NCBI GenBank assembly: GCA_000091205.1
Contig: AP006495.2
Length of the DNA: 64,000 nucleotides
Reading direction: 5' to 3' (one strand)
From: Cyanidioschyzon merolae
Taxonomy: Eukaryota
Both the position numbers and the translations under genes were made by a program. A model generated the notes under the pieces. That model saw nothing but the letters and a program-made list of their open reading frames with translations. It was not told where the DNA came from and did no database searches. Of this stretch, positions 1-64,000 are shown in pieces. Each line of letters starts with the position of its first letter. Positions within the stretch are counted from its first letter, which is position 1.

Positions 1-1000
1 GAGTTGCCTGTAGGATAGATTCTTTACTGAAGTGTGCATCGAGGACTGCTTTCATTAATCAGGTCAGACATACCACAGTAATCAGACTTCTACCGAAATG
101 GCAACTCCGGAATTCCGCGAACGTCGCTATCCAGATAAAGCACATGAACGTCGGTTTGTTTTCCCAGTCGATGAGACTTGCTTCGGACGAAGCGCTCGGA
201 GCGTATATGGGTATGTCGGAAAGGATGCCCGTTGCACGTCCGAATGAACTCGAAGAGAACGATAGCATGATATATTCTGGGTGCAGGGGATTCATTTTGC
301 GGCCTCAGGTTCGCTGGTAGTGGAGGCCCATGCAACAGCACCAATCACTTTGTCAAATCATTGCAGACTGGTGCCTGACGTCTGGCGACGTCCCCCTATT
401 GGACGATGTGGTATTTGACAATTCCGTTTGCGTTCGAGCTTTTGTGAATTTTATAGATGTCGAGCTGCTTCTCATTCCACAGTAGGTTCCGTGGTTCATC
501 CCCATCGAAGGAGCGTTTCCTAATCGCCAAACGTAATGATCGCAAAACTGGGCGAATCGCTGAAGCGTCCCCCACACGTTTTTACTCCGAGGGCGCATTT
601 CGTGTTTCTTCCACAAGTCCTCCTCGCTCCGGGATGGTGTGTACCTAAGAGTAGCAAGAAACGTGTTCATTTTTGAAGAAATACAATACCGAAGGAATGA
701 TCTGGGCTGTCCACTGTAGAAGGTCGAGATGGACCGAGGGCAGCGCATGGCTTCGGCGACAGAAAAATACGGAGCGATGACAGAGCACAAACTGGCATCA
801 AGGTCTCGAGTTCGAGGACTCGTTGCATTGGTGAGTCCCACCAGACGCAATAAACGCATGAAATTCATGACCCAACGCTTCAACGCTGCCATCAATACGA
901 CGAGATGTGTGGTACCGAAAAAGAGACCCACGGAGCTGAGGTGATCCAACTGAGTGGGAGCAGCTCTTCACCGATAGAATCGGCGAAGAGCTTCAACGCA
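1..1000 (+). mobile_element. Fragment D: degenerate 3' portion of the TnpB/Fanzor-like element at the window edge
   Basis: RRFVFPVDETCFGRS (~nt 150-200) is cognate to RRFITIPVDEFRTSY. The ORF 729-944 ends ...GLVALVSPTRRNKRMKFMTQRFNAAINTTRCVVPKKRP, a RuvC-III motif that has lost its Asp. There are multiple frameshifts. Confidence 0.45.
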
Positions 1001-1712
1001 ACAGTAAGCGTAAATTACCATGCAATCCAATGGAAGGACGTTGCCAGAAGCCGGAAAAAGTCTTCGATCATTCGACGAAATAGATCCTGTTGTATGAGCC
1101 TTATCTACGGGCCAGTACTGAGGCCGCCAAATGAATCCACTGCAGCTAGATCAGAGGACGAAGAATACCTCGTTCCGATCGAGATCGATCGTCGATACAA
1201 CGGGCGCCCTGCTCCTCGAATACCCATCTACAGTCCAACTATTTCGTCCGAGGCAAGCCGCACCAACTGAAGAAGAAAACCAACGTCCCTACACTGTGCA
1301 CGGATCGCAACTTTCCAGTAAAGATGTCGTTGCTGTTTCGATGGAAATGGCCGTGATAGAACTAGAGTATTTTTCCGGACCGTATCCCAGTGTTCCCAGG
1401 ATCACACGAACAAGCAGTAGAGCAGCAGAGACGCCCCCAGCTGCTACCAGGATCGCTTCTGCTTTCCCGAAACTATTCAACCGTGAACTTTTCTACCATT
1501 GATTTGAACCACGCTCTGACAAAACCAGCTTTTGAAGCGGTAAGCATCCAGCTCCTTCTTTCAGTATTCCTCATCCATCTGAGTACTACGGTACACCTGA
1601 CGACCCCACGAAGGAATGCAGTCCTCCTGGCACGATTCCGGAGAGCATCCATCCTACCGGCGATTTGTCTATAATCCAGAATCCGCATGACATAAGTGAT
1701 GTCAATCGCCTG

Positions 1713-1714
<2 letters not shown>

Positions 1715-1744
<30 letters not shown>
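1715..1744. repeat. (GCT)n microsatellite, ~10 units
   Basis: gctgctgctg... is visible upstream of the synthase gene. Confidence 0.9.
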
Positions 1745-1745
<1 letters not shown>

Positions 1746-1832
1746 GGTGGAACGCAATTGACATGACAAGCGCCGACGCAGACGCGACGGACGGCAGAGA
1801 ACGTCTGATGCACCACTCGTTTCGGTGCCCCG

Positions 1833-4800: not shown

Positions 4801-7283
4801 TTATCAATGTTCGCGGTGGACACGACGGGGCACCGTTTGCCGTTCCCGTTGACACCATCGTAGATCTGCGACCGCTAGCAGAGGCACTTGTTGCGGCCGC
4901 TTTTCGAAATGGATGCACGTATTTCGGTCCTTGGGATCGCATCATTGAACTGCGGGATTGTTTCACGGGGGCTCGAGAGCCGTCACGCTATGCGTTCGAA
5001 GAGTTTCTCTTTCGCCGCTTGCAGATCACGTTGAAGCCGCTAGAAACGCGGATCCTGGAACTGTGTCCTAGCTCGGAAGCGGCCGAGTCCAGCACCGATC
5101 TGCATCAGCAAACCGTCCAGCGTCTCGACGAAGACGATGAAATGTTGTTGGACGCCCGTGCCAACTGGCTCGCTGGCTACCTCGCTCGACACTGTTACGA
5201 CTTGAAGGCTTTTGCCCGAGCGCTCGGCTTTCTCCAAGGCCTGCTTGCGCCCGGTAAGCAGCAACTGACCGAGGCTCGAGCTCGCCATCTGATGTGTGTC
5301 TGCCTGCAGCGAACAGCGCTGCTCGCCGGTGAGCAAGAGTATCCGCCACACGGTTTCCGTGCTGTCTCCGGCGAGCGTCTGCTTGCTTATCTTATGGTGC
5401 TGTCGAGTTGTGGAATTGATGCACTTCGCACCGTTGCACGACGCATCCTCTCCGGGAATCGAATGGGTCCGATCGTGCTCTTCAGTCCGGAGCTCGGTCG
5501 TTTCTCGAGCATCGGAGGTCTCGGTACCATGGTCGATGAACTCTCCAAAGGTCTCGCTGATCTCGGCCTCGACGTGTACGTCATCTCGCCAGCCTATACC
5601 TTCAATCGTCGTGGAGAGACGCGCTATCTCGAACGGGACGGTATTCGCTGGACCCGCAATATCGATGTGCGTATCGGGAACGTTGGTGTCGCCACGCTGG
5701 GCATCTTCGAAGGCATTGAAAACAGTGTTCGTCTGATTTTCTTTGAAAATCACTCGTACTTCCCGCGAGTCTACCAGGATCTGGGCTCTCAGGCGCGCAT
5801 GATGGAGATGCTGGTCCTTGCGAATCGGGGAGTGCTTGAAATATGCTGCCACAAGCAGTTGCGACCCAGCCTCTTGGTGACCAACGATTGGATGGGGGGT
5901 CTGGTTCCCGCCTACGGGCGACTGGGCTATTTTGGTGGCTATTTCGACGACACCTGTTTCTTCCATATTGTGCACAACCTTGGCGATGCAGCCTACGAGG
6001 GTCGTCTCTACCCGAGTCCAGCTGAGGCCGGATTCGAGGCCATTCATCAGCTACCTCGCGACATTGTCATTGATCCTACCTGGAATCGCGTCGTTGTGAA
6101 CCCCAGTCGTGCCGCCTTCAAGTGTGCGCACAGCTGGGGCACCGTCTCGCCGAGCTACCTGGAGGAGTTGCTCACGAATCACCCACTGCGTCCCGTGATG
6201 CGTCTCTGTCGAGCGCCATTCGGGACGTCCAACGGTATTCGTGTGCAGGATCGTTTGGCGTTACTGCGTCGGGTAGCGTCGAGCCACGAGGAGGCCAAGA
6301 GCGTTCTCCAGAGCAAATACTTTGGAGTGACGGATCCGGGGATTCCGGTGTTTGCATTTGTCGGGCGTCTGACGAGTCAGAAAGGGGTGCACCTGATTCT
6401 CTCGGCAACAGATGCACTGATGAATCTGGCTGGCCCCAGCAAGTGCCAGATCCTCATAGGCGGCATGGCGAACCGGGCGGATCCGTACGGTGCGGACTGT
6501 GCTCGACGCTGCAACGAGCTCAAGCAACGCTACCGGGGGTATTTTTCTGCTGACCCGGATAACTTTTTCCATGATGGACCGTTGGTCAACTTGGGCGCCG
6601 ACTTTTGCCTCATGCCCTCGTTGTTCGAGCCCGGCGGCATTGTACAGCAGGAGTTCTTCGTGGTAGGCACCCCGGTGATCGCGTACCGCACCGGTGGCCT
6701 GAAAGACACGGTGATCGAATGGGATCCGGTGGAGCTCACCGGATCCGGGTTCGTATTCCACGAGTATACGATGGATGATTTTCTGGCTGCTTGCAAACGA
6801 GCGCTCCGCGTCTACGCCAAGCCGGACGAGTACCAGCTTCTGCGGGAGTCGACCCGCGAGTTTGTCATTGATGTTGCCCAGGTTGCCGAGGCGTGGTCGC
6901 GGGAATTCCATCGGGTCAAGAACATCATCCCGTGTCGGGATGATGTGTTGGCTCTGGATCTGGAAGCGGTGGCGAGCGAGCTCTCCAGTGCCGTCAAGGA
7001 TGGTGTTTGTGTACCAGCGGTGCCCGTGGATATCGATTGGCCCGATGCATCCGCTTCCAGTGTCTCTGTGAAGGGTTCCTTTGATGGCTGGAGTCGTGAA
7101 TGGCCCCTGCGTCGTGACTCAGGCAAAGCAAACGCATGGGAGCGCACGTTCTGGCTACCACCGGGTACCTACGAGATCAAGTACCGCGTGGACGGCGAGT
7201 GGCTTGTTCACCCGCACAAACCAGTAACGAATACGAGCGGGCTCTTGAATAACCTGCTGGAGGTGCCTCGACAGACCCCATAA
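1833..7283 (+). CDS. Multidomain starch/glycogen synthase-like protein (N-terminal GH13 alpha-amylase-like domain, GT5 glycogen/starch synthase domain, C-terminal CBM48/AMPK-beta-like glucan-binding domain)
   Basis: Uninterrupted 1816-aa ORF. The GT5 N-terminal signature SIGGLGTMVDEL..ISPAY resembles the KTGGLGDV motif. The C-terminal GT-B motif FEPGGIVQQE...GTPVIAYRTGGLKDTV resembles GlgA FEPCGL...RTGGL.DTV. A GH13-like segment GSFDAVQELLPRLAASGITGIYVSG is present upstream. The C-terminal GSFDGWSREW...YEIKYRVDGEWLVHP matches a CBM48/AMPK-beta-type glucan-binding domain. The true start is probably an internal Met (e.g. MPGSTQ near 2074); the ORF 5' end runs through a (GTT)n poly-Leu tract. 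Confidence 0.72.
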   Translation: MDCSSVQRSSSSCSCVSRALVHTREDCVLWRGLSKSVRSRTRAIRALGCCSSILLLLLLLLLLLHLASGDTHRVFAKGNVMPGSTQRGGWREQRPALSRGTPVNQRRWSAWLPRLSSLVDEQPVQDVLDEVQQLLLERSTWVTYEDGARGGASGRGANKPPAPFSSAGWERLQTLLEVEKALVSALGHHCEDVRDRAVVLLSVLYDGHPLQLAGDALPVAVTCVGEPVTVCIPFASEADREAFQPQRAVLRLFRPWPNKNKNGYTREVLSKQATNSLQLGGSRPPRSPSSDGPQQRKPSLATETGPNATSTSPSREQTAQDWTNAEEEAEQELPVGTHALWAACHGHWQSYPISVQGESILVHLGSFEQPGFYDWYIARASDGVASPLVIAHPVVYADVPGMDFRRLRGRFIVQPRGARAHRLYEIPVDQVGARWDATTGALLSRGSFDAVQELLPRLAASGITGIYVSGCLERRLDEHEPTPHTVVDRAMPATILGGVHKFRRMCAEARRHQLATIVDCLDRVSLARAHRRYRRIGYVRIVDAKRQVPALPHPGTDCHEVQWEDTALLNYRRLESWYSLIEDISQMATEHGAGGVRLDNAQCVPCVLAPDVTELARIDNDGIAHYDDEEKAFGDVVLANVEGGYWRTDAAIDGYPNPLLLKLTREMWHWNPSFLVLGESHFHRERNLIVSGLIPHTLRVATILAGISGKSLRRDGSVRALGENKHPTVDFIARLYRNDAHAIPSGAIMVGGTCSDTSPYPSVLYGRRAWTAVDMLCFLPDIPLLLLGEEDGRAYRINMASVSREVDPDTNLELEVPKSPRLGGHGLPRGSSVASGMSMLHLQQTSMGDVRRLKRSGSRETGLARLSSTNLLGRNTTNRRADSGSMSGAAAAMVRSRSTEDMLKLSIRSVSAEDIRQLDLAEEDIRREIGPQEGYDIRQIRGHYEHRLRLRASYEALREGHMVALVVREQAKYQVLAFARFTRQQIVLLFINVRGGHDGAPFAVPVDTIVDLRPLAEALVAAAFRNGCTYFGPWDRIIELRDCFTGAREPSRYAFEEFLFRRLQITLKPLETRILELCPSSEAAESSTDLHQQTVQRLDEDDEMLLDARANWLAGYLARHCYDLKAFARALGFLQGLLAPGKQQLTEARARHLMCVCLQRTALLAGEQEYPPHGFRAVSGERLLAYLMVLSSCGIDALRTVARRILSGNRMGPIVLFSPELGRFSSIGGLGTMVDELSKGLADLGLDVYVISPAYTFNRRGETRYLERDGIRWTRNIDVRIGNVGVATLGIFEGIENSVRLIFFENHSYFPRVYQDLGSQARMMEMLVLANRGVLEICCHKQLRPSLLVTNDWMGGLVPAYGRLGYFGGYFDDTCFFHIVHNLGDAAYEGRLYPSPAEAGFEAIHQLPRDIVIDPTWNRVVVNPSRAAFKCAHSWGTVSPSYLEELLTNHPLRPVMRLCRAPFGTSNGIRVQDRLALLRRVASSHEEAKSVLQSKYFGVTDPGIPVFAFVGRLTSQKGVHLILSATDALMNLAGPSKCQILIGGMANRADPYGADCARRCNELKQRYRGYFSADPDNFFHDGPLVNLGADFCLMPSLFEPGGIVQQEFFVVGTPVIAYRTGGLKDTVIEWDPVELTGSGFVFHEYTMDDFLAACKRALRVYAKPDEYQLLRESTREFVIDVAQVAEAWSREFHRVKNIIPCRDDVLALDLEAVASELSSAVKDGVCVPAVPVDIDWPDASASSVSVKGSFDGWSREWPLRRDSGKANAWERTFWLPPGTYEIKYRVDGEWLVHPHKPVTNTSGLLNNLLEVPRQTP
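1994..2025. repeat. (GTT)n microsatellite encoding a poly-Leu run in the 5' part of the long ORF
   Basis: tgttgttgttgttgttgttgctattgttgttg translates to LLLLLLLLLLL in the ORF. Confidence 0.9.
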
Positions 7284-14200: not shown

Positions 14201-15059
14201 AACCCGATAAAGTCTTGTCTAAAAAAGAATGGGACGGTCTCCCGTAGACAGGCGCGATTTTTTCGTTGCCCATCCGTGCCGCTTCATCCCCGTTCATATG
14301 CACCGTGCGAAAAACGTCACATACTGTGGTATCTCATGGAGTATCGCCCAGAGAGCATTCGGATTGCAACGGAATAACAAGAAAACAGCCTAGTAGATGG
14401 TGTCGGATTGGTTCTTTTCGGGTGCACGACGCTCGGAATGAAGGATACGAGAACGATCGGTCATCCAAGTGCTGAATTTTGAACGAGCGACCTGGACAAG
14501 CGAGGTGTTCTCTTCGCAGGCGAGCGGCGACAGCATTACGTATTTGCACAGCGCCTTCGTCAATGAAGAGAGGACATACCTTCTGCCAGATACCTGAGAA
14601 AAAAATCAAACATAAGCAAAAGAGCTTCCCATTAAAGATAGGCGGGAATGCGCTTCGATCTCTGCGGTTCGACCGGTCGATGCTTCATCTTCAAAATTAC
14701 GAGATAAAAGAGCACAGCTAAGGTAGGCATAGGCCTGCAGCACCTAAGGGAGCGAAATGTTTCGCCTCTATAGAGTCTATATAGATATCTACCGACGCAC
14801 AGGCGCATCCTAGTCGTTTTTGACCGGCACCTGTTATCGGTGTCAGTTGCTCTCCCAGCACACTTCGAGACCGAGAGGCTGCCGCATAGAGTTGTATCGC
14901 GTCAGCCCCTCGGGTCTCGTCTTCAACAACGCACATCGTCTGATCTGGATAGCAGCACTGAAGTCTCGGCTCACGGAAACCATGCGTTTAGTTGCCTCTG
15001 TTTGAACTCACAAGTGCCAGGCGTCCTCGAACGAGCGCCCTCTGTGTCACCACAGTCTC

Positions 15060-16050
15060 GTAATCATCCCGTCAGGCAAACACGTTTTCTCGTCTATCTC
15101 CAATCGACATCTTCTTCTTCTTCGTTGCTTGCTCTTCTGCGCCTGATTGTCGCCGAGAAGGAGATCTTCCACGTTCTTTCCTGGCAGCCGGCGAAACGGG
15201 GCCTCCAGGATCCGCCACGCTCACTTCCATCACTTTATTTTGTTTTGAATATGAACCCGATGTCGAACGCGTCTGCCTTGAACCGCGAAGCATGACTTGA
15301 ATACACGAGTGTGAAGGCTGAAGCACAGCCGACTTGCCGGACGATACGTTGCAATGACTTTAACGCAAATACAGCTCGGACGTCAGAGGAACCCGCTCAT
15401 CATCATCGTGATCGCGTTTCTCCTCAACGGCGAGATACGCATCGCATCCCATGCCTGCCAGATTTGGAGGTGCGCGTATCGACCCCGCTATATAGAAAAA
15501 AGAACACAAACGAACATCTAACTAGCAACGAGATAACGATTTCTTTCCACCGCTACGATCAAAGTCAAACAGAGGAAACGTTTTCCGTATTGTCGAAAGT
15601 TTACCTTCCAGACGAAAGGTCCCGCAAGCCGGACGAGTCGATCGGGCTCTCGCGCCATATTCCTCCGTAGGGGCGGGTGCTGTAATGAGACCTGAGCAAC
15701 TCGTCGGCAACGCAGTTTATTCTGGGACTCGGAGCGGGTAGCCTGCGTCTGCGCGTCGCCCTGGTCGCAGTGGACTCCTAGCAGCTCGCTTCCCGCTGTC
15801 GCAGGCAGTGGATCTGTCAGCACATCTTCCATGCTTCCAGAATGCTGATGAATCTCGATTCCGTATTCACTGAATCATGCCGCAAGCGGACGCCCTCAGT
15901 AGTATCCCAAAGCGGCGCTGTCTCTGTGCTCCATCCGCACCATCTGTAGCGGTGCTATTGCGGGTGCTTACCGCGGGTACTAGATGCTCGACAGAACGTA
16001 CGAAACTACAAGTACGTACAGCAGAATGCATACGTAATGGGACTTGAAGA
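15060..16050 (-). mobile_element. Fragment E: solo ~1 kb 5' region of the element, lacking the nuclease ORF
   Basis: It is collinear with A 35990-36960 and with the B 5' region (e.g. ggtaaactttcgacaatacggaaaacg, ctgcgaccagggcgacgc, cgccggctgccag). There is no homology to ORF segment 1 beyond ~15060. It ends ~200 bp from the start of the 16261 gene. Confidence 0.5.
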
Positions 16051-16260
16051 AAGGATCCAGCATCATGGACGTTTTGTCGATTACCAATACCCATCCCACA
16101 GTCGGGGATCCGCGGTCCATCGAGACGTACTGCCGAATCGCACCAATCAGCGCAATGATCTCCTTGACGCCCGGTATTCGAGCTCCTTCTCTACGATCAG
16201 GAAACGTACGCTTGCAGCGCTGCGTTGCGGTAGGCAGTAGAAGCACGGAGCTCGTTACAA

Positions 16261-35521: not shown

Positions 35522-37088
35522 AGCAGTCTCACTGTTCGGTTCGTTACAGACAATCCTTCTGTTAGGGATTAAGAAACGCTCCCCAAAATCACCCACGTTG
35601 AGAAAGAAAAAAGAAAACTTGCCTCCAGAGGCTATGCAACGATAGCTTCTAGAGACGTTTCGAATGGTGGCATGGCCTCCGAACCGTTGTACCCCGTGGC
35701 AAGATCGAGTCTGTACATAATTATCCAAAAGTTGAAGGCGCTCGATACGCCGGACAGCGCTGCGCGGCGCTGCTACCGGGACACGTTGCGGCTATCGCGC
35801 GATCGCGTATCGCGTGACTGTCGATTGAATCCTTTTTGTCCAGATATATTCCTTATTTGGACAGAGCGATATGGACGCAGGTTGTTTTTTGATGGCAAAA
35901 CGCTGATATGGACCATGGATGCCAGTCTGGGGGATAGATATTGCAACAAATGAAAGCGCTCAGCAATGTTCACTCTCGTTCCGAGTTCCACGACGCACAT
36001 TTTCGCACGGCTATACTGGTCGCTTTGCACGTTCCCTGGTGCGCCGCATACTGGCAGTGAGCACCCGCAATAGAGCCTATGCTGCTCGTGCGGATACTGA
36101 ACGGAGACAGAGCGGCTTTGCTATATCAGTGGGGGTGTCGGCTCGATGCGTGGTGCATTCGACACGGAACCAGGGTACATTATCATTCTGGGGCCTGCCA
36201 GCTGCGAATGCAGACCCACTGCCTGTGGCAGCGCGAATTGATTCGCAGGGAGTCCTCTGCGACCAGCACGACGCCCAGAAGGAGCTTATCCGCTCCGAGT
36301 CCCAGAGTAACCCGCGTTTCGGACGAGTTGCGTAGACCTCACTACAGCACTAGGGACTGGGGGAAGCGTGAAGCACGAGCCCGGGAGACTCTTGCGGCTC
36401 GCGGGACCCTCTGCTTCTACGGTAAACTTTCGACCATACGGAAAGCTTTTTGCCCCTTTTGACGTTTATCGTAGAGAGGCAAAGACATCTTTATATCGTT
36501 GCTAGGTAGTAGTGAGTTTCAGTTCTACGTTCGATATAGTGCGGTCGGTTAGCGCTCCTCCGTATTCAGCATGCATGGGACACGACTCGCATGTCGTCGT
36601 TGAAGGGAAACACGATCCTAACTATTCGTTGACTTGCTATTCTACAGTACAAGATCTATTTGCGTGAAAGTCGTAGCAAAGTATAGCTTTCAATTCAATC
36701 GCGTGTCAAGCCTCAACTAAGTGTATTCAAGTGATTTTTTGCGGTTTATAGCAGAAGCGTTCAACGTGCGTTGTTTATCCAAAATTAAAAAATGGGAATA
36801 GTATAGAGAAGGAGGTGGAGGATCCTGCAGGCCGAGTGTCGCCGGCTGCCAGAAAAAAACGGAAAATAATGCCGAGTCCAGAAGAAAAGGAGGAGAATAA
36901 GAAGCAAGGGAGGGAGCCCCCGTAGTCAATGGCTGCACGAAAGACGACACTGCGACGACATGGTAGTCGAAGCCTGTCTTCCCAAACATATCAAGGATCC
37001 CTACAAGCAAAAGATGCGAGAGGCCATCAGAAGCCGTATCCATTCGTACTCCAGGTAGGTTCATAAGGTTTCTGGAGGACTGAATCAT

Positions 37089-38931
37089 ATGTTGAGGGAG
37101 ATATACGATGACGTTACGGACACCAAACCGGTCGAGGTTCCGGAAGAATTTTTCGACAAGACCTTTATTCGTCACCTGATGGTTAGAACAGGAGAAACGT
37201 CGGGGGGAAATGATGGAGTGCATGCACTCCACGAAAACTACGCAGAATACCACTCCAATGGTACTCGATACAGCGTTCACCCGTGTATTTACGAATACGG
37301 GGCGAAGAAGTACCTCACGAACCTGAAGAACCATATGACGATGAACCTCGAACGTTTCATGATACGCACCGTGTTTGCACTTTATCCGGGCCTGTCTTGC
37401 AATAGGATATGGGGCATCATCGAAATCATCTCGAACGATCGTCAACATGAAGATGAGATCGAATTCGTCGACAAGAAGACATCACGCAGGAGAAAGAATG
37501 AGGATTCTGTAATCCGTACGGTTATGCAAGAGCACCGTGCGGTACTGGGCTGGCGAATCCAACAGACAAGATATCAGAGTTGAAAAAAGATAAGGAAAGA
37601 TACTATCGCCTCGTCCCGCGCCATGTTGTGTTTCTGGACCGAGAACTCGAACGCAAGGCAGAGGTGAAGCTGGGTGAGGAAAACAATGAAGAGTGGGAGA
37701 AACGGAATGCAGTCCTAATGGCGAAGCGCTTCAACGTGGTTCCAATGTGCAAGATCAAGTCACATTTTATGACTATCGACTTCGGCGTCCTTTACGGCAT
37801 AATGAAGGAGATCAGTCCGGAGTTCAATGTTAGTAGGGAGGAACTCTCCGGTGAAAACCGGGATACGTACAGTAAGAAGAATATCTTCTATTTCAAACGT
37901 CTCAAAGTGAGCAAACAAAAGGTATTTGCTGGGTTGATCGAAATCGATGGAGTAGTCATGTGTGTACACTATCGGCGGTTGACGAAAGATCGTCCAGTCC
38001 CGCCCTCTGCTGCGCCCTCGACGAAGCATGAAGAAAACGAACAAGCGGATCCTGCGACCGAGAAAGTGCGAGGTACCGACTTTGACGTTGGCACGGACCC
38101 CGGCAACGCAAATATCATAAGCATCGCAGAACCCAAGCGTGCCGTGCGGAAGATGGTATTGACGGTAAATTACGTCGGAAAGGCATGCGTCTTTTGACAT
38201 CCTCGAGAGCAAGATACTATCGAGAATCGGGAATCATGAATGCGAAGAACAAATTCGACAAATAGAATTCAGGAATGAAAGAACACCTGGAAGCTTTGAG
38301 CGAGGTGACAAGCCGAGGAGCGGACTTTGAAGCTTTTCTGAAATTCGTGGAAGTTCGCGTTGCTCATTGGGATGCGCTATGGAAAGAGTACACCAAGCCC
38401 AGTTGGGCTCGTCTGCGTATGAATCTATACGGTGGGAGGCAGCGGGCGATCGCGAACTTTTTCAATCAGTTGAGCGCCTTGAAGGAGAATGAAAGTCAGA
38501 AGCTTGTTGTAGCATACGGAGCAGGGCGCTGGAAGACCCAAAAGGGGTGTATGCCAGCTCCGACGACGAGGGTGAACAAGGAGTGCGCAAGGCGTTTCAT
38601 TACGATACCCGTAGATGAGTTCCGAACATCGTATACACACCATGAACTGGGGTGTACATTTCAAAGAGTGGAGCTGGAAAAGTGTCAATGGAGCCCTGAG
38701 GAAATCGCAAAGTACGGACTGCTGACGGAGGAGCAAAGGGAAAGGAGGGCAAAAGTTCAAGGGCTACTCGCACTGGTGAGTACAACCAGTGACGGCAAGA
38801 AACGTATGGAGTTTGTGAACCGAGATTTTAACGCCGCTCTCCATATACGGAGATGTGCGGTGCTGGAGGAAAACCCCCAGAGTAGACAAGAGGGAATTTT
38901 GATGGAGAACCTCTCAAGTCGAACTATATGA
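37089..38931 (+). pseudogene. TnpB/Fanzor-like RuvC nuclease ORF (copy A), split into three frames (37089-37583, 37580-38197, 38275-38931)
   Basis: RuvC-I-like [19 protein letters not shown] is present. The zinc-finger region IPVDEFRTSYTHHELGC...C follows. The RuvC-III motif KKRMEFVNRDFNAALHIRRC is present. A frameshift relative to copy B lies at AEPKRAV/EDGID. Confidence 0.6.
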
Positions 38932-39090
38932 GAAAAAATTGGAAGCAGTAGTAGGTGGCCGGTCCAAAAAAACTGGGAGGCGTCTGCACGTCAGTTGGAG
39001 ACGTTTTGTCTAGGGCGCGTTCACCGCCACTACTGTACACCGTTGGCGTCGTTCGAGTGCGAAAGGCGTTTGCAGTTGGCTTCGTCACGC
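38932..39090 (+). ncRNA. Candidate guide-RNA (omega-RNA-like) scaffold / right-end block of the TnpB-like element
   Basis: The ~150 nt immediately 3' of the ORF stop is the best-conserved part of the element across A, B and C (gcagtagtaggtggccggtcc ... ggcgtctgcacgtcagttggag ... gtctagggcgcg ... gccactactgtacacc ... ggcgtcgttcgag). The internal complementary arms cagtag..gtggc / gccactactg can form a ~10 bp stem. Confidence 0.35.
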
Positions 39091-53149: not shown

Positions 53150-54040
53150 CTAGTTCCCAAAGGCGCCCAGCAGTTGCTCAACAGCAGGCTTGACACGTTT
53201 TTCATACCAGGACGGATCCGGACAGAGCTCCTGGATTTTGCGCGCCATTGCTTGCCAGCCGTCTTTAACACGGCTCAAATCCAGCCCAAGTTCATGGTAG
53301 AGCTCCAGTAGTAATGCAACGTTGCGTCGGTGCAAAAAGTCAACTGGCGGTGCATTCTCCTCCTGAGCCAGCACCGCATAACTCACAATGCGAAGCTGAT
53401 CGCGCATGTCGTTGGCGAGCTGTTCCTCGATGGCTTCGGTGCGGCTCAGCGTTGCCAGATTTTTTCCCTCGTAGCATTCTTTCTTCACCCTTGCAGCCGC
53501 AATGCCAGCTTCGATGATCGCCTCCGCATTGGTCGTAATGACTGCCGCCACGTCAGCGCCCTGAAAACTCCTCCTACCACGATATGACTCAATCTCTTCG
53601 ATAGGGACGAACATCAGCGCTGTATCATTTTTCCGGCAGGTGTTCGCGGCTTCTGTATGGAAGCCGTCACCACACCGAAGAAGCGACTTGTGACTGCGCA
53701 AAAACGCCCGCAGGGCCTGCGCACGCCTCGACATGTGATCCGTCTTTGGGACCGAAGTTGGAGCGGGCGCACCATTGTTCTGGGAAGCAGCACCAGCGCC
53801 GTCACGCGGGCCGGCACCCACCGGGAACGGTGGAGTTAATGTCGAGGTGATCTGCAGCGCCCGACAAGCACGCTTTGCGTTCGCCAACGAGCATGGGGAA
53901 ACCCGCCGGAGCGACCTCCCGTGCGAGGAAAGCCAACGGCTACTCCAAACGAAGCCAGTCGACGCCTTCCTAACCAACGCTACACTTGAAGCCTTTCGAT
54001 GTTTCGGTGAATAATGCAAAAAAATGTTTGTAAAAGCCAT
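53150..54040 (-). CDS. Hypothetical conserved protein with Arg/Ser-rich N-terminal presequence
   Basis: The ORF track gives 53150..54067, apparently with a non-ATG start. The first ATG gives MAFTNIFLHY... The N-terminus looks like a mitochondrial presequence. The internal block RCGDGFHTEAANTC...VITTNAEAIIEAG is unassigned. Confidence 0.35.
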   Translation of the reverse strand: MAFTNIFLHYSPKHRKASSVALVRKASTGFVWSSRWLSSHGRSLRRVSPCSLANAKRACRALQITSTLTPPFPVGAGPRDGAGAASQNNGAPAPTSVPKTDHMSRRAQALRAFLRSHKSLLRCGDGFHTEAANTCRKNDTALMFVPIEEIESYRGRRSFQGADVAAVITTNAEAIIEAGIAAARVKKECYEGKNLATLSRTEAIEEQLANDMRDQLRIVSYAVLAQEENAPPVDFLHRRNVALLLELYHELGLDLSRVKDGWQAMARKIQELCPDPSWYEKRVKPAVEQLLGAFGN

Positions 54041-54049
54041 GTTCGAGCG

Positions 54050-54195
54050 CACGACACGCACCAACAAACGCCCCTCTAAAGTCGAACGACGCCAGCGGTA
54101 TGCAGTAGTGGCGTGTGACGCGCCCTAAACAAGACGACTCCAACTGACGTAGAGACGCCCACCAGGCGTTCTCGGCGGTCCATGTACTAATGCTT
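54050..54195 (-). ncRNA. Candidate omega-RNA-like 3' block of copy B
   Basis: It is homologous to 38932-39090 (ggcgtctctacgtcagttggagtcgtcttgtttagggcgcgtcacacgccactactgcataccgctggcgtcgttcgac). Confidence 0.3.
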
Positions 54196-56082
54196 TCAAT
54201 CATGTCTCATATAGTTCAACATTGGGAGGTTGTCCAATAAAGTTCGCTCTTGTCCATTATGAGGTCTTCTTTCCATCACCGCACATTTGTTTATATTAAT
54301 TGCGCCATAAACATCTCGGTTCACAAACTCCATACGTTTCTTGCCATTAGAAGTTGTACTTTCTAATGCGAGCAATCCTCGAACAATCGCCCACCTTTCC
54401 ATTTGCTCTTCCGTCAGCGCTCCGTACGTTTTTATATCCTCAGGGCTCCGCTGGCACTTTTCTCTTTCGGCTCTCTGAAGTGTACATCCCAACTCGTGGA
54501 TTGTATACGATGTTCGGAACTTATGTACAGGTATCCTAGCGAAACGCCTTGCGCAATCCTTATATATTCTTGTCGTGGGAGCTGGTGTAGTCCCTTTTTT
54601 GGGCGCCCAGCGCCCTGCTCTGCACGCTACTACGAGCTTTTGACTTTGATCCTCTTTGAGGGCACTGAACTGATTGAAAAAGTTGACGAATCCACGCTGC
54701 TTCCCACAGCACAGATACATTCGCGATAGAGCCCACATGGGCTTTAGATATTCTTTCCAAAGCGCCTCCCAATGAGCAACGCGAACTTCCATGAATTTCA
54801 GAAAAGCTTGAAAGTCTGCTCATCGGATCGTCAGCTCGCTCGAAGCTCTCAGGTGCTCCTTGATTTATGCATTCCATGTCTCAGTTTTCTTCCTCGCATT
54901 CTTTATACCGGATTCTCGATAATATCTAGTTCTTGAGAACCTCAATAGACGCATGTCGCTCTCACGTAAGCTGCCGTCAATGCCATCTTCCGCACGCTTG
55001 GGAGCAACGATGGTTATGCTATTCGTATTCGCAGGGTCCGCCCCAACGACAAAGTCGTTATCCTGCACCTCCTGCGTCGCTGGATCTGCCTCTTTGATTT
55101 CTTCATGCTTCGCAGAGGGCGAAGCGAAAGGCACGATAGGACGATCCATCTTCAACCGCCAATAGTGCACACACATGGCTACACCATCGGTTTCGACCAT
55201 CCCAGCGAATACCTTTTGTTTGCTCACTTTGAGACGTTTGAAATAGAAGATACTCTTCTTACCGTATGTCTCACGGGCTTCACCGGAGAACTCCTCCATT
55301 GTAGCATCGAACTCGGGACTGATCTCTCTCATGATGCCATGAAGGGTTCTGGAGTCGATACTCACAAAATGTGACTTGATGTTGCACATTGGAACCACGT
55401 TGACGCGCCTCCCCATTAGAATAGCCTTCCGTCTCTCCCACTCTTCATTTGTCTCTACACTCAGCTTCATTTCCGCCTTGCGTTCGAGCTCTCGGTCCAG
55501 AAACACGAAATCGCGCAGAATGAGGCGATAGTATCTTTACTTGTCTTTTTTCAACTCTGATATCTTGTCTATTGGATTCGCCAACCCCAGTACCGCACGG
55601 TGCTCTTGTATAACCGCACGGATCACAGAAGCTTCATTCGTGCTCCTGAGTGACGCCTTCTTGTCGACGAATTCGACCTCATCTTCATACTATCGATCGT
55701 TCATGGTGCCATTGATCATCGCCCATATTCCTTTGCGAGAGACGCCCGTGTGGAGTGCAAACACGGCGCATATCATGAAACGTTCGAGGCTCTCTGTTAA
55801 ATGGTTTTTCAGGTTCGTAACGTACTTCATCGTTCCGTATATGTAAATATTCGAGTCACCCTTGCATCGAGTACCCTCGAAGCAGAATTCCGCGAAGATT
55901 TCGTGAAGAGTGCGAACCAGCTCATTTTCCCTCTGCGCTTTCCCTGTACCAAGCATCAAGTGACGAATATGTGTCTGGTCGAAGAGCTTGTCCGGAAGCT
56001 CGACCGTTTCCATGTGCGTCACGTCGCGATACGTCTGCATCACCAAATGCATCAGTCCTGTCGACGCCTTGACAATACTCAT
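54196..56082 (-). pseudogene. TnpB/Fanzor-like RuvC nuclease ORF (copy B), single frame interrupted by stops plus one frameshift
   Basis: The segments 55690-56082, 54865-55506 and 54196-54792 share a frame. The motifs [37 protein letters not shown] and EFVNRDVYGAININKC are present. A 1-nt deletion near FVF/LDRELERK was seen by manual translation. Confidence 0.6.
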
Positions 56083-57413
56083 GGAGTACGAGTTGACATG
56101 TTTTTTGATAGTGTCTCGAAACTTTTTCTTATATGGATATTCTTTATACGTTTACGAAGACCGGCGTTCACCACCATGTTGTCATAAAGTAGTCTTTCTT
56201 GCATGCATCGACGTAGGGCCTCCCCCTTTTGCTTCTTCATCTCCCCCTGTCCTCTGGACTCCACACTGTTTTCGGTATTTTTTTTCCGGCAGCCGGCGAT
56301 AATGGGCCTACAGAATCGTCGACTAGCTTTTTCATAACTTTCTTTTTTTAGCTTTTCTTCTCAAAACAGAACTCTCTTTGAACGCGTCTATTATGTGTTG
56401 CGAGAAAACTCTTGAATACACTTGTCTTAGGTTCGAAACACATATGAACTGAAAAACTGTACTTTGCTAGGGCTCGAACGGAAATCCAACTATTACAGCT
56501 AAACAACACGCTCCTGATCACGATAGCGTTTTCCTTCAACATCGGCGGCATTCGCGTCGTGTCTCATGCCTGCCTGATTTCCCACGGGTGCTAACCGATA
56601 GCTCTATTTAGAACAAAGAAAAAAGAACAGAGACTCGCAGTCCGCGAGCAACGATATAGCGATTTCGTACCCGCTCTACAATAAACGTTGAAAGAGGAAA
56701 ATCATACAGAATTTTAGAAAGCTTACTTTCCAGGCGCAAGGTCCAGCGAGCCGGACGAGTATGCAAGGCTCGTGCTCCATGCTCCCCCAGTGGCAAGCGC
56801 TTTAGTGCGACCTGACCAACTCATGCACCAAGCAGTTTATTCTTGCGCGAGGAGCGGGTATGGTGCAAGTGGTCATCGCATTGCTCGAAGATGATTCCTA
56901 GTATATTGCTTCGCGCTGCCGCAGGCTGCACGTCTGTCTCCGCAGTTTGCAGGCTCCCTGAATGATAACGAGTCCGGATTCCGTCTCAGTGGAGCCACAC
57001 CTCGAGACGACGCCCTCAGTAGTCTCGCAAAGCCATTCTTTCGCTGTGATGAGGCTGCACCTTCGGTGTAAGCAATAGGGAAGGCTCGGCACGCTAGAGA
57101 ACTACAAAACGGCCAGCACATCTCGAACGAATTATAGGTAATGGAGTTTGAAAGTAGGCTGAAGAATATCGAGCGCTTTCATTTCTTTCAATATTCATTC
57201 CGCTGTCAGCGATCCATAAAGCAAGTCAACATTTTATCATCAAATGAAACGCCAGAATCAGGTGCTCACCATTTAGGAACACGCGCCGACGCAAATATCG
57301 CCGCCGTTGGTCGGCAGGTACGGCCCGACCTCGCGGGGCAGGCTTCAACTTTGCTGAACGTTCGCTGAACCTCACGTTTCAATTTCTTTAAAGCGTCTGC
57401 TGAGGCTTGTCCA

Positions 57414-58684: not shown

Positions 58685-60667
58685 TCAGCTATCCGCTAAG
58701 TTCGTATTCGCGTCTAGGGGCCGCCAGCCAAGGTCTTGCAAGGCCGTCAAAGAAGCCGATACGCTAGAGCTCCGCCAGCGCGGCGACTTCCAGATCGAGC
58801 CGCCCCGAGTCTCCTCCGTCCAGAGCGGAGCACCGGTATCCCCAACGTGATAGCTGTTCTCGATTCGTACGTTCGTTACACCGATCTGGGCAAACGCTTT
58901 CGTCAGCTGCGCGAAGGGATCCTCGGTGACGCTCCAGTGCGGATCCGCAATGGATACCGAGCGCCCTGACGACACCGAATGTGAGATCGGTGAGTTATCG
59001 GGCAAGCATGGGTTCCCCGTCGCTGGTTTCCTTCGTTCGCCAACAGCACCGAGAGAGACAGAACAAGAGCGCCTAATCGCGCCGCTTGCCATTTGAATTG
59101 CCGGGTCCCAGGAGATGAACGCCTGCTGTGTCAACGGTTCGACCTCTGGGTGTAGCGCTGTACGATTACCTGTAGCGTCACGTTCTGACAAAGAAATACG
59201 CTCGTATTCGTCAAAAGAACGCCATGCGTTGACCATAGCCCCTGATGCTTGAGGCGGTGCCCCTTCGGCTGCATCACCCACAAGCCTTGTTGAGCGTTCT
59301 GAGGCCGCGCGCGTCCCCAGGCCGGGCTCCGCATGCCACGACAAGGGCGAACTGCTTCCCCAGATGCATCCAAGCTTAAACAGATCGTTCTCTCTTGCTG
59401 CACTAATCTTGGGAGAGGCGAACTCGTCAAAGACGAAGTCGTCCTCATTTGGACCCGCCTCGGCACCCGAGATACTCCCTGCGTCCTGCCTCGCATCGAT
59501 ATCAGAGAGCGGCTGCAGCGTCGCGTTGGAGCAGGGCTTCTTCGTCTGCGTACAGGTCGCGGATCGAAACGCATGCAACGGTGGTGGAGGCCCGTACCTA
59601 CTCTGGAGAAAAGCCTCCCGGGATATGGCATCTGTGTTGGAGGCAAACTCATGTCGGTATAAACACGCGGGATCCACGCAGCGTTTCTGGGTCGGTGGCT
59701 GCGGCGGTTTTGCGCCGTTGGATGCCCGCTTTCGAGATATGACCTTTGCGCCGGCGAATGCAACCGCTACCGTATCGCTTGCATCGAGTGGCCTTATTGA
59801 CGGGTTCCGTCCAGATGTCCATTGTGCAGACTCAATCTGGCTCTGTTTCCATTCAACGAATGTTTTCAGGTATTGCTCACAGGCCTGGACAAATGCCTCA
59901 CAATAGCGCACCGTGCCATAGGAGACGTGCACTTCATGGCCTTGCCAGCGCGCCCCGTCGTAAAGCTGTATTGCGCGGGTGGCTGCCGCCTCATCTGCAT
60001 ACTCCACATAGACGCCAGTTCCCTGGACAAAGAGAACTCGTTGGATTCTCCCCGTCTTTCCGAACATGTCCGAGCGCCGAATTGTGTGCTCGGACCAGAG
60101 AGATTGGTGCAATCCACGAATGCAGATCAAGTTCCGCTGCACGATAAAGGTCTGACGCATTGTTCGTATCCGCTTGGCGAGCTCGTACTCCCGCTGCTCC
60201 TGACGTTCCCTCTCTAGCTGTTCTTGGCGAAGCTGTCGCTCCTTTTTGCGCCTGTTTATTTCACGTAGTCGTTCCTTCTCTGCAAGACGTTCATCACTAA
60301 GCTCCTCGCGGAGTTGAAAGCGGCTCTCGTCGTACGGCGTCCGGCACGCGGGGCACCGGGGGACCTGGCCCTCCTCGCACGCTGTGCGAAGGCGACTCAG
60401 GCACCACAGGCACACTTGATACCCGCACGCGCAAGGAAAGAATGCTTTCTCTGCGGCATCCAGTTCCTCAAGGCAGAGCGGACACTCGCTGCTCTCTTCC
60501 GAAGGTTCGCAAGGTGCCTCATCGGCTGACTTTCCAGAAGCGTGACGGTGCGTAGCCTGGCGCCGCGTCCGTCCGTTTCTTGCCCGCCCGCCTGTCGGCT
60601 GCCTAACGCGTTTCAAAGAAAAAGAACTGTCAGAGGTATCCACAAGTTTGGCACCGCTGAACGCCAT
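58685..60667 (-). CDS. CCR4-NOT complex subunit 4 (NOT4/MOT2)-like RING E3 ligase with RRM
   Basis: The N-terminal C4C4 RING CPLCLEEL...FPCACGYQVCLWC...CPACRTPY is followed by a coiled-coil and an RRM-like block (TFIVQRNLICIRGL...GKTGRIQRVLFVQ), which is the NOT4 architecture. Its start codon abuts the 3' end of repeat copy C. Confidence 0.65.
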   Translation of the reverse strand: MAFSGAKLVDTSDSSFSLKRVRQPTGGRARNGRTRRQATHRHASGKSADEAPCEPSEESSECPLCLEELDAAEKAFFPCACGYQVCLWCLSRLRTACEEGQVPRCPACRTPYDESRFQLREELSDERLAEKERLREINRRKKERQLRQEQLERERQEQREYELAKRIRTMRQTFIVQRNLICIRGLHQSLWSEHTIRRSDMFGKTGRIQRVLFVQGTGVYVEYADEAAATRAIQLYDGARWQGHEVHVSYGTVRYCEAFVQACEQYLKTFVEWKQSQIESAQWTSGRNPSIRPLDASDTVAVAFAGAKVISRKRASNGAKPPQPPTQKRCVDPACLYRHEFASNTDAISREAFLQSRYGPPPPLHAFRSATCTQTKKPCSNATLQPLSDIDARQDAGSISGAEAGPNEDDFVFDEFASPKISAARENDLFKLGCIWGSSSPLSWHAEPGLGTRAASERSTRLVGDAAEGAPPQASGAMVNAWRSFDEYERISLSERDATGNRTALHPEVEPLTQQAFISWDPAIQMASGAIRRSCSVSLGAVGERRKPATGNPCLPDNSPISHSVSSGRSVSIADPHWSVTEDPFAQLTKAFAQIGVTNVRIENSYHVGDTGAPLWTEETRGGSIWKSPRWRSSSVSASLTALQDLGWRPLDANTNLADS

Positions 60668-60823
60668 TCAAAAGTCGAACGATGCCGAAGGTGTACAGTA
60701 GTGGCGGCAAACGCGCCCTAGACAAGACGTCCTCAGGCGACGTGCAGACGCATCTGTCTTTTTCGACCGGCCACCTACTACTGGTTCCAACTTTGTCTCA
60801 TACAGTTCCACTTTGAGTGATTG
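60668..60823 (-). ncRNA. Candidate omega-RNA-like 3' block of copy C
   Basis: ccagtagtaggtggccggtcg...gtctgcacgtcgcctgaggacgtcttgtctagggcgcgtttgccgccactactgtacacc...ggcatcgttcgac is nearly identical to copy A. It ends at the NOT4 ATG. Confidence 0.3.
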
Positions 60824-62852
60824 TCAAGCAAAGTCCACTCTTGGCCACTCTGGAGGTCTTTTCTCCAGCACCGCACATTTCCTTGTATTGATTGCGGCAT
60901 TAAAGTCACGATTCACGAAATCAATCCCTTTCTTGCCACTATTAGTTGTACTTAATAATGCAAGTAGCCCACGAACTTTTGCCCTCCTTTCCATTTGCTC
61001 ATCCGTCAGCGGTCCGTATTTTGCTATTTCCTCAGGACTCCGCTGACACTTTTCCATCTCCACTGTCTGAAGTGTACAATCAGTCCATGGTGCGTATAGG
61101 ACGTTCGGAACTCATCCACAGGTACTGTAACGAAACGCCATGCGTATTCCTTGTACGTCCATGTCGTCGGAGCTGGCGAAGTCCTTTTTGGGTCTTCCAG
61201 CGCCTTGCTCCGTACGCTACTACCAGCCTATGGCTTTCATCCTCCTTCATGGCACGGAACTCACTAAAAAAGTTCGCGACTGCACGCTGCTTCCCACAAT
61301 ACAAATTCATACGCAAACGAGCCCACCGGGGCTTTGTATTCTCCTCCCACAGCGCATCCCAACGAGCAACGCGAACATCCATGAATTTCAGAAAGAGGTT
61401 ATGTCCGCGCCGCGGCTCGTCACCTCGCTCAAAGCTTCCAGGTTCTCTTCCATTCATGCATTTCAGCTTCCAAATTTCTTCCTCGCATTCTGTATAACGG
61501 ATTCTCGATAGTATCTTGCTCTCGAGAGCCTCAACAGACGCATGTCTTTCTGACGTAAGTTACCGTTAGTACCATCTTCCGCACGCTTGGATATTGCGAT
61601 TGTTATGATATTCGTGATCCCAGGGGTTAAGGCCGACGACAAAGTCGTTTTCGTGGGGATTATACGTTCCATGGCTGGTCTTTTTGTGTTTGTCCTTCGG
61701 CAGGGGCGAAATGAAGACGGGATAGGGCGGCCTGCCTTCAATCGCCGGTTACGTAGACATATGGAAACCCCATCGTTATCGATGGCTCCCGTGAGCACCT
61801 TTTTTTTTTTGGTCGGCCACGGACGCTTGAAATCGAAATTATTCTTCCAGTAGGTTTCCGGTCTTCGCTGGTGACCTCTTTGTTTCTTAAATCGAGCTCT
61901 AGAGAGATCTCATTGCTGAAGGCTCAAAGGGCTCTAGAGTCGATATTCACAAAATGTGACCTGAACTCGCATAACCGGAAGGCAATGAAGCGCATCCGGA
62001 GAAGCTCATCAATGCCGGTCCTCCAATCCGTCATTCTTTCCACACTCAGATCCATGTCGGCCTTGCGTTCGAGATCTCGGTCCAAAAACATATAGTAGGG
62101 CAGGAAGCGGGGGTAACATCCCTCTTCGTTTTTTCAGATATCTGACAATTTTTCTCTTGGGTTGAAATGCCCCAAGACCGAACGATGCTTTAGAAGAGTC
62201 GCGCGGAAAACAGAAGCCCTATTTTTGGAACTGCATGATGTCCGCTTGTCGACGAATTCGATCTCTTGTTCATGCTCGCGATCGTTCTTGATACCATCGA
62301 AGATTGCCCCTATCCCTTCGCGGAACATGCCCGAGAACAGCGCCAAGAAGATGCGTAGCAAAAAATAGTCGATGTTTACGATCTTATACTTCCTCACATA
62401 CGTGAGGTAGCTCATTGCCCTGTAATCGTTAATGTCTGCGTTACTCTTCGTCCAGCACCGTTGAAGCGGTATTTGGAATAATTTTTGAGGAAAGCATGAA
62501 CTCGCTCATTTCTCCAAGATATATCTCCACAGCAGCATCAGGGCGGATGATGAAAATCTTTTTGAAAAATTTTTCCGGAAACGTTACTTGTTCGACGTGG
62601 GTTTCGACGCGATGCATCTCCCCATTCCAAACGCATCAGTCGAAAAAGAAGCGATACAAACATACCTTGAGCAAGATGCTCCATGATTTCTGACGGCCTC
62701 TCGCAACTTTCCTTTGTACGGATTTGTAATATGCCCAAGACGACGGGATTTAAACACCACTTCTTCGCTCTGTCGTCTTTCATGCAGTCTTTGAGGTTGG
62801 GCTCTAGTTTCTTGCGCGTCTTCGTCTTACACGGTTCTTCTACACTCGGCAA
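60824..62852 (-). pseudogene. TnpB/Fanzor-like RuvC nuclease ORF (copy C), heavily frameshifted
   Basis: The RuvC-III motif GIDFVNRDFNAAINTRKCAVLEKRP is present. ITNIITIAISKRAEDG is a frameshifted RuvC-I. An N-terminal segment EIEFVDKRTS is shared with copies A and B. Confidence 0.55.
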
Positions 62853-64000
62853 AGCTCTTTGTTCGCCCCCGACAGCCGGAAATACCGGCCATCCGAAACA
62901 TCACTACCTCGAGTACCATAAGTACGGATTATTTATAAAAAACACTTTGCACGCTTCTGCATTAAACGGCGGAATATCAGGTATATACTTTTACTTGAAT
63001 ATTGAAACAGTATTGAAGAGAAACATATATTTTGCCACGATTTCAACACAAACACTACATGCCCCTATACAGCTGGTGATCAAAAAGTAGTCATTCTCGC
63101 GATTATGTTCACCGGCGAGACATATTGAGTATTCTGACACCCAAAAAAAGTGGAGCGCGTACGGGCAAAAAAACGCAGAGAAGAAAGAGAAACATAAAGA
63201 TTAAAGACACCGAGTTAGCAGTTTCACTTCATAACTATGGTAAACCTTAAAAAGAGAAACGTTTTGGGTATGGTCTAACAATTACCTTAGAGATGGAGAG
63301 ACCTACAAACCGGAAGACGCAACCTGCCCTTGCACTAAATGAGCCAGACTGGCAAGAAAGTTGACGCACCTGAAAATCTCGTACGAATCGCGTTTGGTTC
63401 TAGGACTAAGAGCGGGTGTGCTGCGTATCGCTGTCACCTTGGTGGCGGTGGAATCTTAGCACATGGTTTCGCGCCACCGCAGGCAGAAGCACTAAATTTC
63501 ATGCTTGAGGGCTCCCAGAAATATAAAATAGCCCTGATTTCTGGTCGCGAGAGCGAAGCCTCCCCCGAAGCACTCAGTGGAATGCCGAAACTGTCCAGTT
63601 TCAGTAGCGCATCCGCATCAGCTATACAGATGGTACGGCGCATGTTCAGGCAGGGATTTGGCGTAAAAAGGAAGCGTGAAACGGACAGTAGAGCCAAGAC
63701 TAAATAAAGGCGATGGTACGAACAGTGATTCTTTGGCATAATAAACGCATTCCCGACACCAATATCGATCCGGGGATCACATCTATCTGGTCATTGAACG
63801 ATTTATCAAAGATACAAACCGTTACACGGGAAGGAATTCCTTAATGGATATTCTGTTCTAGGCATCACGATGAGCGATACATACAAACACAGTTCATGAT
63901 ACCGAGAAACTTCCCTAGTGACTCTAGTACATTAAACATCGCAATGACAAATGCTCCCGCGCTATAACCAAATACCGGATAGAATCGGGGGAATGGGGGG

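Follow-up and report, generated by a model that had tools for sequence, protein, structure and literature searches.

What occupies the roughly 1.3 kb in front of a TnpB-like nuclease gene that recurs in a 64,000-nucleotide stretch of the Cyanidioschyzon merolae genome (GCA_000091205.1, contig AP006495.2), and why is it conserved at the nucleotide level only? This whole stretch, referred to here as the window, has a GC content of about 55% and long open reading frames (ORFs) without introns, and it has a eukaryotic look. When the window is compared with itself, a repeat of about 3.2 kb emerges that is complete in plus-strand copy A and in minus-strand copies B and C, is shortened in copy E and leaves a small piece of its 3' part at 697-939. 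An initial annotation, made from the letters alone, set the interval at 35750-37088, upstream of the nuclease ORF of copy A, and read it either as a second gene in decay, for instance a transposase that partnered the nuclease, or as a long structured or regulatory left end. Our analysis points to another answer. The interval very probably belongs to a defunct copy of the Fanzor1 element CMe-1A, of which it forms the left ~1.2 kb, and consists of the inverted 3' end of a long interspersed nuclear element (LINE), a leader and the decayed N-terminus of the Fanzor1 protein. The question is therefore mostly closed, as the 5' region is the published CMe-1A left arm plus a missed ORF start, and not a hidden transposase or guide RNA.

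A known Fanzor1 element with a LINE 3' end on its left

CMe-1A is a Fanzor1 family of C. merolae described by Bao and Jurka (2013, Mob DNA 4:12; PMC3627910). Its consensus measures 3,169 bp and has one 734-aa Fanzor1 ORF; the copies, about 150 in number, match this consensus at ~80% identity. The family has no terminal inverted repeats (TIRs) and no determined target-site duplications (TSDs), no transposase is listed for it, and its 5' 635 bp are 95% identical to TE-N2_CMe, a Repbase entry with ~70 copies in C. merolae that was published as unclassified. An interspersed repeat of 3.2 kbp that is transcribed, has a WSV486-like ORF and occupies ~5% of the C. merolae genome in 253 copies (Nozaki et al. 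2007; PMC1955436) is probably CMe-1A. The published consensus (Additional file 2 of PMC3627910) serves as the family consensus here, and consensus positions refer to it. Judged by identity to this consensus, copies A, B, C and E are evidently members of the family (Table 1), A and B passing the usual 80% family threshold over most of their length. The element itself is known, and a separate 5' module of 635 bp has been part of its published description since 2013.

The regions upstream of the nuclease do align as had been reported, with 68-70% identity between pairs of A, B and E along 0.8-1.1 kb and a weaker match of C, and all of the quoted motifs were found. This similarity is far beyond chance and reflects common descent of whole elements. 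The boundaries differ from those first given. Homology begins in A at 35890 instead of 35750, the letters before it being unique flank. Copy E, which had been taken for a solo 5' fragment, covers consensus 1-964 (78% identity to consensus 11-964 at 16128-15172) and 140 bp further on resumes with a 3' piece at 15032-14890; it is thus an internally deleted copy. The ORF start at 37089 had been placed 286 nt too far downstream, the N-terminus of the published CMe-1 protein matching A at 36803-36916 and 36921-37184 (tblastn E=2e-41). Because this protein aligns there, the last ~290 bp of the interval are decayed coding sequence. In A, the start codon has changed from ATG to ATA at 36803, and a +1 frameshift near 36917-36920 and an in-frame stop near 37056 follow; the ATG at consensus 906 is present in 34 of 47 copies. 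The previously quoted motif cgccggctgccagaaaaaaa is coding as well and specifies SPAARKKRK, a basic stretch resembling a nuclear localization signal (NLS). Such stretches have been reported at Fanzor N-termini (10.1101/2023.06.13.544871).

To study the family, 80 related loci (numbered with L) were collected and their copies aligned to the consensus; removal of near-duplicates left 69 sequences, including 26 full-length copies with the left arm found in A (type X). The origin of the TE-N2 module of this arm emerges from its minus strand. In another group of copies (type Z), a long open frame lies upstream of the Fanzor unit on the same strand (L074 475-1533). Relatives of this frame extend N-terminally into the reverse-transcriptase motifs GLRQGDxxSPLLFNIF and LLFADDVVLLA and match PF00078 (including P0210). 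The frame is the C-terminal part of the ORF of a non-LTR (long terminal repeat) retrotransposon, and its LINE nature emerged only from the homologues with PF00078. With this LINE ORF as tblastn query, residues 208-353 match the minus strand of many copies, down to E=1e-13, and in copy A the match lies at 36204-36067 (E=1.3e-6). In the published consensus, a hidden Markov model of the LINE ORF C-termini finds the minus-strand frame at 232-541 (E=2.7e-8). At the nucleotide level, the 3' end of an independent LINE copy in L083 gives a blastn match of 79% over consensus 84-282 (204 bp, E=9e-45) and a second, collinear match. This LINE ends in ...GGAAACGTCTTCTCCATAGGAAAAAGAA, after which unrelated host DNA begins, and it has an A-rich tail of the same kind as the module, whose terminus has AAACGTTTTGTC(C)AT in common with that of the LINE. 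Directly before consensus 1, every independent X-type copy (about 30) carries a T-rich run of variable length and composition, and beyond it unique flank. By this homology, the minus strand of the TE-N2 module evidently derives from a non-LTR retrotransposon that encodes a reverse transcriptase. It is the 3' end of such an element, truncated on its 5' side, with the end of the ORF, the 3' untranslated region (UTR) and the A-rich tail. The idea of a decayed second gene is correct insofar as a gene fragment, the LINE ORF C-terminus, does lie here on the opposite strand; as a transposase partner it fails. The LINE origin of the module and the alternative left arms described below are new here, as small additions to published knowledge.

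Solo TE-N2 modules also occur in related loci (L078 11165-11745, L044 10581-11052). A post hoc likeness concerns GGAGACGTTTTGTCTAG at the Fanzor stop codon (38995-39013, consensus ~3092-3110), which resembles the LINE 3' terminus GGAAACGTTTTGTCCAT (L083 ~2270-2290) and, when inverted, also the left terminus of the element (35892-35913).

Between the module and the ORF lies the leader of the Fanzor unit. Every family member, whichever left arm it has, shares this leader from about 36540 onwards (consensus 648, at a CGCG..GCGC palindrome). The identity of the leader to the consensus is 0.785-0.80, with neither periodicity nor a conserved fold. The leader probably carries the left terminus of the Fanzor unit itself together with the promoter and 5' UTR of the nuclease gene, and the regulatory role that the initial annotation entertained would be plausible only for this ~270-bp segment.

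Table 1. Anatomy of copy A and location of the CMe-1A copies in the window
Feature	Position	Strand	Remarks
Unique flank of A	35750-35889		no consensus counterpart; ends in T run
Short T run (A-rich tail on minus strand)	35885..35889	-	just outside left terminus of A
TE-N2_CMe-like module	35890..36527	-	consensus 1-635; published consensus aligns here
LINE 3' UTR and terminus	about 35890-36123	-	within TE-N2-like module
LINE ORF, last ~100-145 codons	about 36124-36431	-	consensus 232-541
Leader of Fanzor unit	36528..36802	+	consensus 636-905
Fanzor1 ORF start, decayed first 95 codons	36803..37088	+	consensus 906 onward; basic, NLS-like, IEKEVEDPAGRVSPAARKKRK...
Rest of decayed Fanzor1 (TnpB-like) ORF	37089..39013	+	to consensus 3110
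Right end with terminal hairpin region	39014..39068	+	decayed in A; candidate guide-RNA or right-end element
Copy A	35891-39048	+	83.3% to consensus 2-3145
Copy B	57241-54090 (element 54069..57242; 5' part 56336-57242)	-	full-length; 80.3% to consensus 2-3145
Copy C	63771-60662 (element 60662..63811; 5' part 62920-63811)	-	full-length, most diverged; 73.2%, consensus 43-3169
Copy E	14890..16140	-	consensus 1-964 (16140-15172) and ~2850-2990 (15032-14890)

Coding potential and RNA structure of the 5' region

The pattern of decay distinguishes the nuclease gene from what precedes it. Identity to the consensus across the 26 non-redundant full-length copies is 0.858, 0.882 and 0.808 at codon positions 1, 2 and 3 of the ORF, which therefore bears a clear mark of past purifying selection; it is 0.84 in the 3' tail, 0.785 in the leader and 0.783 in the TE-N2 module. 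The 5' part has diverged as much as synonymous sites or more. Its three phases lie 0.025 apart, vs 0.078 in equal-length windows of the ORF, deletions number 4.9 per kb vs 1.7, and only 11 of 116 deletions in the 5' part are multiples of three. The longest consensus frame of the 5' part, with 118 codons at positions 2-355, is the one that contains the previously quoted GACQLRMQTHCLWQREL. It is open in a single copy of the 26, in agreement with the earlier observation that short ORFs are not conserved between copies.

A DNA transposase gene in decay, formerly the partner of the TnpB-like ORF and of the IS607-type serine recombinase, tyrosine recombinase, HUH or DDE kind, would suit an element that lacks any transposase, and the 118-codon frame in the published consensus could be its relic. 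However, remnants of none of these enzymes were found: Pfam searches at E<=1 of the consensus 5' ORFs (at least 65 aa) came back empty, as did Pfam searches of the ORFs in left arms Y, Z and W, and the substitutions have no 3-base periodicity. The frame and deletion counts given above are equally unfavourable. Additionally, the sole protein homology is to the LINE ORF on the other strand, subfamilies with unrelated sequence in place of the 5' region have amplified too, and Bao and Jurka name no transposase for CMe-1A. This proposal is already largely refuted, and we find it scarcely credible.

A structural role can be approached in the same manner. IscB-type OMEGA systems encode their RNA 5' of the ORF, a precedent for a long structured RNA here, either as a guide or scaffold of the nuclease or as a structured left end. 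A scan with 40-nt windows, applied to the ends of the element, did contain one mildly stable window, at consensus 301-340 (mean fold z -1.3 to -1.6). Nevertheless, RNAalifold on 27 left-arm copies yields -0.98 kcal/mol and 8 pairs, and 30-nt windows of the left arm have a mean fold z of 0.01, with 4% below -2, against -1.78 in the terminal hairpin of the right end, which served as the positive control and in which 45% of copies have z<-2. Rfam searches at gathering and E-value thresholds and an ARAGORN tRNA scan detect nothing in the 5' region, and the module can be replaced by unrelated arms. Furthermore, TnpB and Fanzor systems carry their guide RNA at the right end and the 3' end of the ORF (10.1101/2023.06.13.544871). 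A structured RNA or a long structured left end in the 5' region is thus highly improbable. The initial annotation had also envisaged the outcome of neutrally decaying sequence in a recently amplified element. This is essentially what was found, with no second-gene coding, no conserved structure and neutral decay, except that the amplification is old and not recent.

The right end is a better place for such an RNA. Across 42 copies, its terminal hairpin persists although the sequence comes in two versions, CGTTCGActtTCGAACG and CGTTTTTCttttGAAAGGCG. RNAalifold is almost empty there because the two versions align out of register, and per-copy fold z-scores were used in its place. The 12-14 nt past the published consensus end are semi-conserved as well, GGCG being followed by TTGATGGTG (39014-39068, 54069-54124, 60662-60717). 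The hairpin, with these 12-14 nt, is a candidate for the 3' part of a guide RNA or for a right-end signal, and by analogy it would lie on the 3' side, where TnpB and Fanzor guide RNAs are usually found. Separately, an inverted repeat at 35816-35879, in the unique flank left of A, weakly resembles mir-4520 in Rfam, at E=0.1 and with a score well short of the gathering threshold; the other copies do not have it, and it is probably due to chance.

Interchangeable left arms and the spread of the composite

Across 74 anchored copies, common sequence begins only at consensus ~648 (A ~36540), so that a module boundary at ~636-648 is recovered independently of the published one. The shared core opens with a short palindrome, which reads CGCGCTCAGTGAGCGC in most types and GCGCGGTCGATACGCGC in type X. 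The letters just before CGCGCTC are ..AAT or ..CAT in 4 of 5 arm types. To the left of this constant Fanzor unit, the family has at least four alternative arms. Type X (42 copies) carries the TE-N2 module. Type Z (15 copies) carries the 3' part of the LINE in sense orientation, with variable truncation points and its tail abutting the core. Types Y (10 copies, ~600 bp) and W (4 copies, ~1.3 kb) carry two further, unrelated arms. The Y-type copies occur with several different flanks.

Within type X, pairwise distances in the module and in the ORF are correlated (Mantel r=0.53-0.55, p=0.001), nearly as two halves of the ORF are with one another (r=0.60), and the composite has therefore been copied as a unit. 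The events that we favour begin with the fusion of an inverted, 5'-truncated LINE 3' end to the left end of a Fanzor unit. The LINE fragment has since been copied with this unit, presumably as a passenger, and whole 3.2-kb composites descend from common master copies and decayed neutrally thereafter. A, B, C and E resemble each other at the nucleotide level because their composites share this descent and later decay. The TE-N2 part encodes no transposase and no conserved RNA, and no sequence-specific function is required for its presence.

Some further observations concern the arms and ends. The Y arm (L017 ~4960-5575) and the W arm (L008 4393-5678) have no Pfam match and no solo copies among the fetched loci, and in several Y-type copies what is left of another Fanzor right end lies ~750 bp before the core. 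Head-to-head loci contain one TE-N2 module between two diverging Fanzor units (L019 2449-8092, L034, L040, L075, L030, L074), the A-rich tail of the module lying within ~25 bp of the core start of the second unit. A LINE 3'-terminal fragment of ~90 nt directly follows the Fanzor right end in two loci (L065 8196-8280, L067 2712-2796); LINE fragments therefore adjoin both ends of Fanzor elements, in different loci. Related loci often contain pieces of the right part that begin at various points (consensus 2507-3086), and the window has two short 3'-part fragments (consensus ~2737-2990) without the rest, at 697-939 and 14890-15032.

How an element of this kind moves is less evident. No trace of TSDs was seen in 18 copies, the longest common substring of left and right flanks being 5.3 vs 5.4 in shuffled pairings; short TSDs would be eroded, because the copies are ~20% diverged. 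TIRs are absent according to PMC3627910, no systematic search for them being part of the present analysis, and an exact look-up of flanking host proteins placed no empty insertion site on record. In the related copies, the right part is constant, the left arms vary and the left boundary lies at a LINE tail. Three models of mobility were considered: the element may be retro-copied from an antisense RNA, it may capture LINE complementary DNA (cDNA) where the core start breaks recurrently, or its copying may require the right end alone.

Several points weigh against a left arm that is simply a passenger beside a leader and an ORF start. The outer boundary of the composite is exactly the LINE terminus with its tail, a coincidence that a pure passenger model does not predict, and the module may supply a working end. 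The leader is conserved no better than neutral sites, and its role as promoter and left end is one that we infer. The first 52 codons of the published ORF have no codon-position signal, and translation could therefore start at an internal methionine, at consensus 1062 (A 36959). The equation of consensus 1-635 with TE-N2_CMe follows the statement of the paper and the matching 635/648 boundary. Copy C lies below the 80% family threshold, and the gathering of loci via the Fanzor protein biases the numbers of solo modules and of truncated copies.

The first of these points can be developed into a different account, according to which the TE-N2 module is a working cis element that confers mobility on an element without a transposase. 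The template would be an antisense transcript with the LINE 3' end as its terminus, from which the LINE machinery would copy the composite by target-primed reverse transcription. All X-type left boundaries, with LINE terminus, variable A-rich tail and unique flanks, agree with this account, as do the co-divergence of module and ORF and the lack of TIRs, of a detectable TSD and of a transposase. Also in its favour, C. merolae has 26 non-LTR retrotransposons, three of them with transcripts bearing an intact reverse transcriptase ORF (PMC1955436). On the other hand, the Y and W subfamilies amplified as well without a recognisable LINE tail, and in the Z and inverted-X types the tail has the opposite orientation and abuts the core. 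Nearly all copies reach the right end, and right-part fragments outnumber left-part fragments in this biased sample, a pattern opposite to the 5' truncation expected of an antisense RNA. Purifying selection on an ORF carried in antisense would also need a separate explanation. We consider a cis-acting module unlikely. A broader proposal, which strikes us as rather doubtful, joins this antisense-tail retro-copying with a break-and-capture version and takes the left arms as the footprint of a transposase-less Fanzor1 family interacting with host LINEs by one or the other route. In the break-and-capture version, the Fanzor left terminus (CGCGCTCAGTGAGCGC...) would be a recurrent break point, perhaps made by the nuclease, at which LINE cDNA and other DNA would be captured in either orientation and then co-amplified. 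Either kind of LINE interaction, if true, would link an RNA-guided nuclease element to retrotransposon machinery and would explain the missing TIRs, TSDs and transposase, which have been unexplained since 2013.

Two other routes were set aside. Transduction of the Fanzor unit by sense-strand LINE 3' read-out was rejected, as no A-rich tail follows the right end, and independent site-specific insertion of Fanzor into existing TE-N2 copies was rejected, as module and ORF co-diverge. The inverted LINE end copied as a passenger remains the reading that we prefer. The LINE origin and the interchangeable arms narrow the ways in which transposase-less Fanzor1 elements, at ~5% of the C. merolae genome (PMC1955436), spread in cyanidialean genomes.

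The nuclease, its surroundings and known systems

The published 734-aa ORF corresponds to consensus 906-3110. One long ORF, with the motifs GxDPG, DEFRTS and NRDFNAAxNIR, reappears when A, B and C are merged into a majority consensus. Homologues number in the hundreds in Joint Genome Institute (JGI) metagenomes, and against homologues down to 25% identity D411 (GxDPG), E583 (DEFRTS) and D652 (NRDFNAA) are invariant; these are the predicted D...E...D catalytic residues of a split RuvC domain. Pfam searches with ORF pieces of A and B and with full homologues gave no direct TnpB match, and NCBIfam and PDB sequence searches of the nuclease gave nothing significant, the best PDB match being a weak one to Guillardia theta Fanzor1 (E=2.3). 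The link to TnpB is only transitive, the consensus protein matching a distant homologue, P0066 (E=1e-27), which carries the TnpB TNB domain (PF07282 E=2.8e-9; guided_TnpB E=2.8e-7). A C4 zinc finger was not found between RuvC-II and RuvC-III, where the stretch TSYTHHELGCTLQRVEMEKCQ is without CxxC pairs; P0066 keeps the cysteines. A 78-bp unit inside the ORF (26 aa, KHEE.., 38019-38096, consensus 2117-2196) is single in the window copies and tandemly repeated 2-4x in many related copies and predicted proteins (P0001, P0011); the loci tied to it are L003, L005, L007, L010, L072, L074, L076, L080 and L082.

Host genes on the same strand immediately follow copies B and C. A gap of ~25 nt separates the end of B from the probable ATG (MAFTN...) of one such gene (54040-54069), and the predicted ATG of a RING-finger ORF (58685-60667) falls inside the last bases of C (GAATGGCG; 60662-60667). 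Elsewhere in the window, an S-adenosylmethionine carrier has 82% identity to a Cyanidiococcus yangmingshanensis protein, the next named relatives being from Galdieria and other red algae.

Compared with known systems, the window copies agree with CMe-1A in length (~3.17 kb), in the single long Fanzor1 ORF, in the left 635 bp shared with TE-N2_CMe, in the absence of TIRs and of a detectable TSD, and in their age, the copies being old and ~80% identical to the consensus. They differ in that all four are pseudogenes and that C falls below 80% identity. In the IS607-type Fanzor2/TnpB elements, a nuclease of the TnpB family likewise resides on mobile DNA that lacks TIRs. However, these elements have a serine recombinase partner, whereas CMe-1A has neither this nor any other second gene, and its protein is classified as Fanzor1, not Fanzor2. 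With the 3' ends of non-LTR retrotransposons, and with their truncated or SINE-like (short interspersed nuclear element) derivatives, the module shares C-terminal ORF homology, the 3' terminus, a variable A-rich tail and 5' truncation. Unlike usual LINE 3' ends, it is fused in inverted orientation to a Fanzor gene and co-amplified with it, with no TSD detected, and its last ~80 nt differ from the sampled LINE. TE-N2_CMe was published as an unclassified repeat; the module that corresponds to it here has a 5'-truncated LINE 3' end with an A-rich tail on its minus strand.

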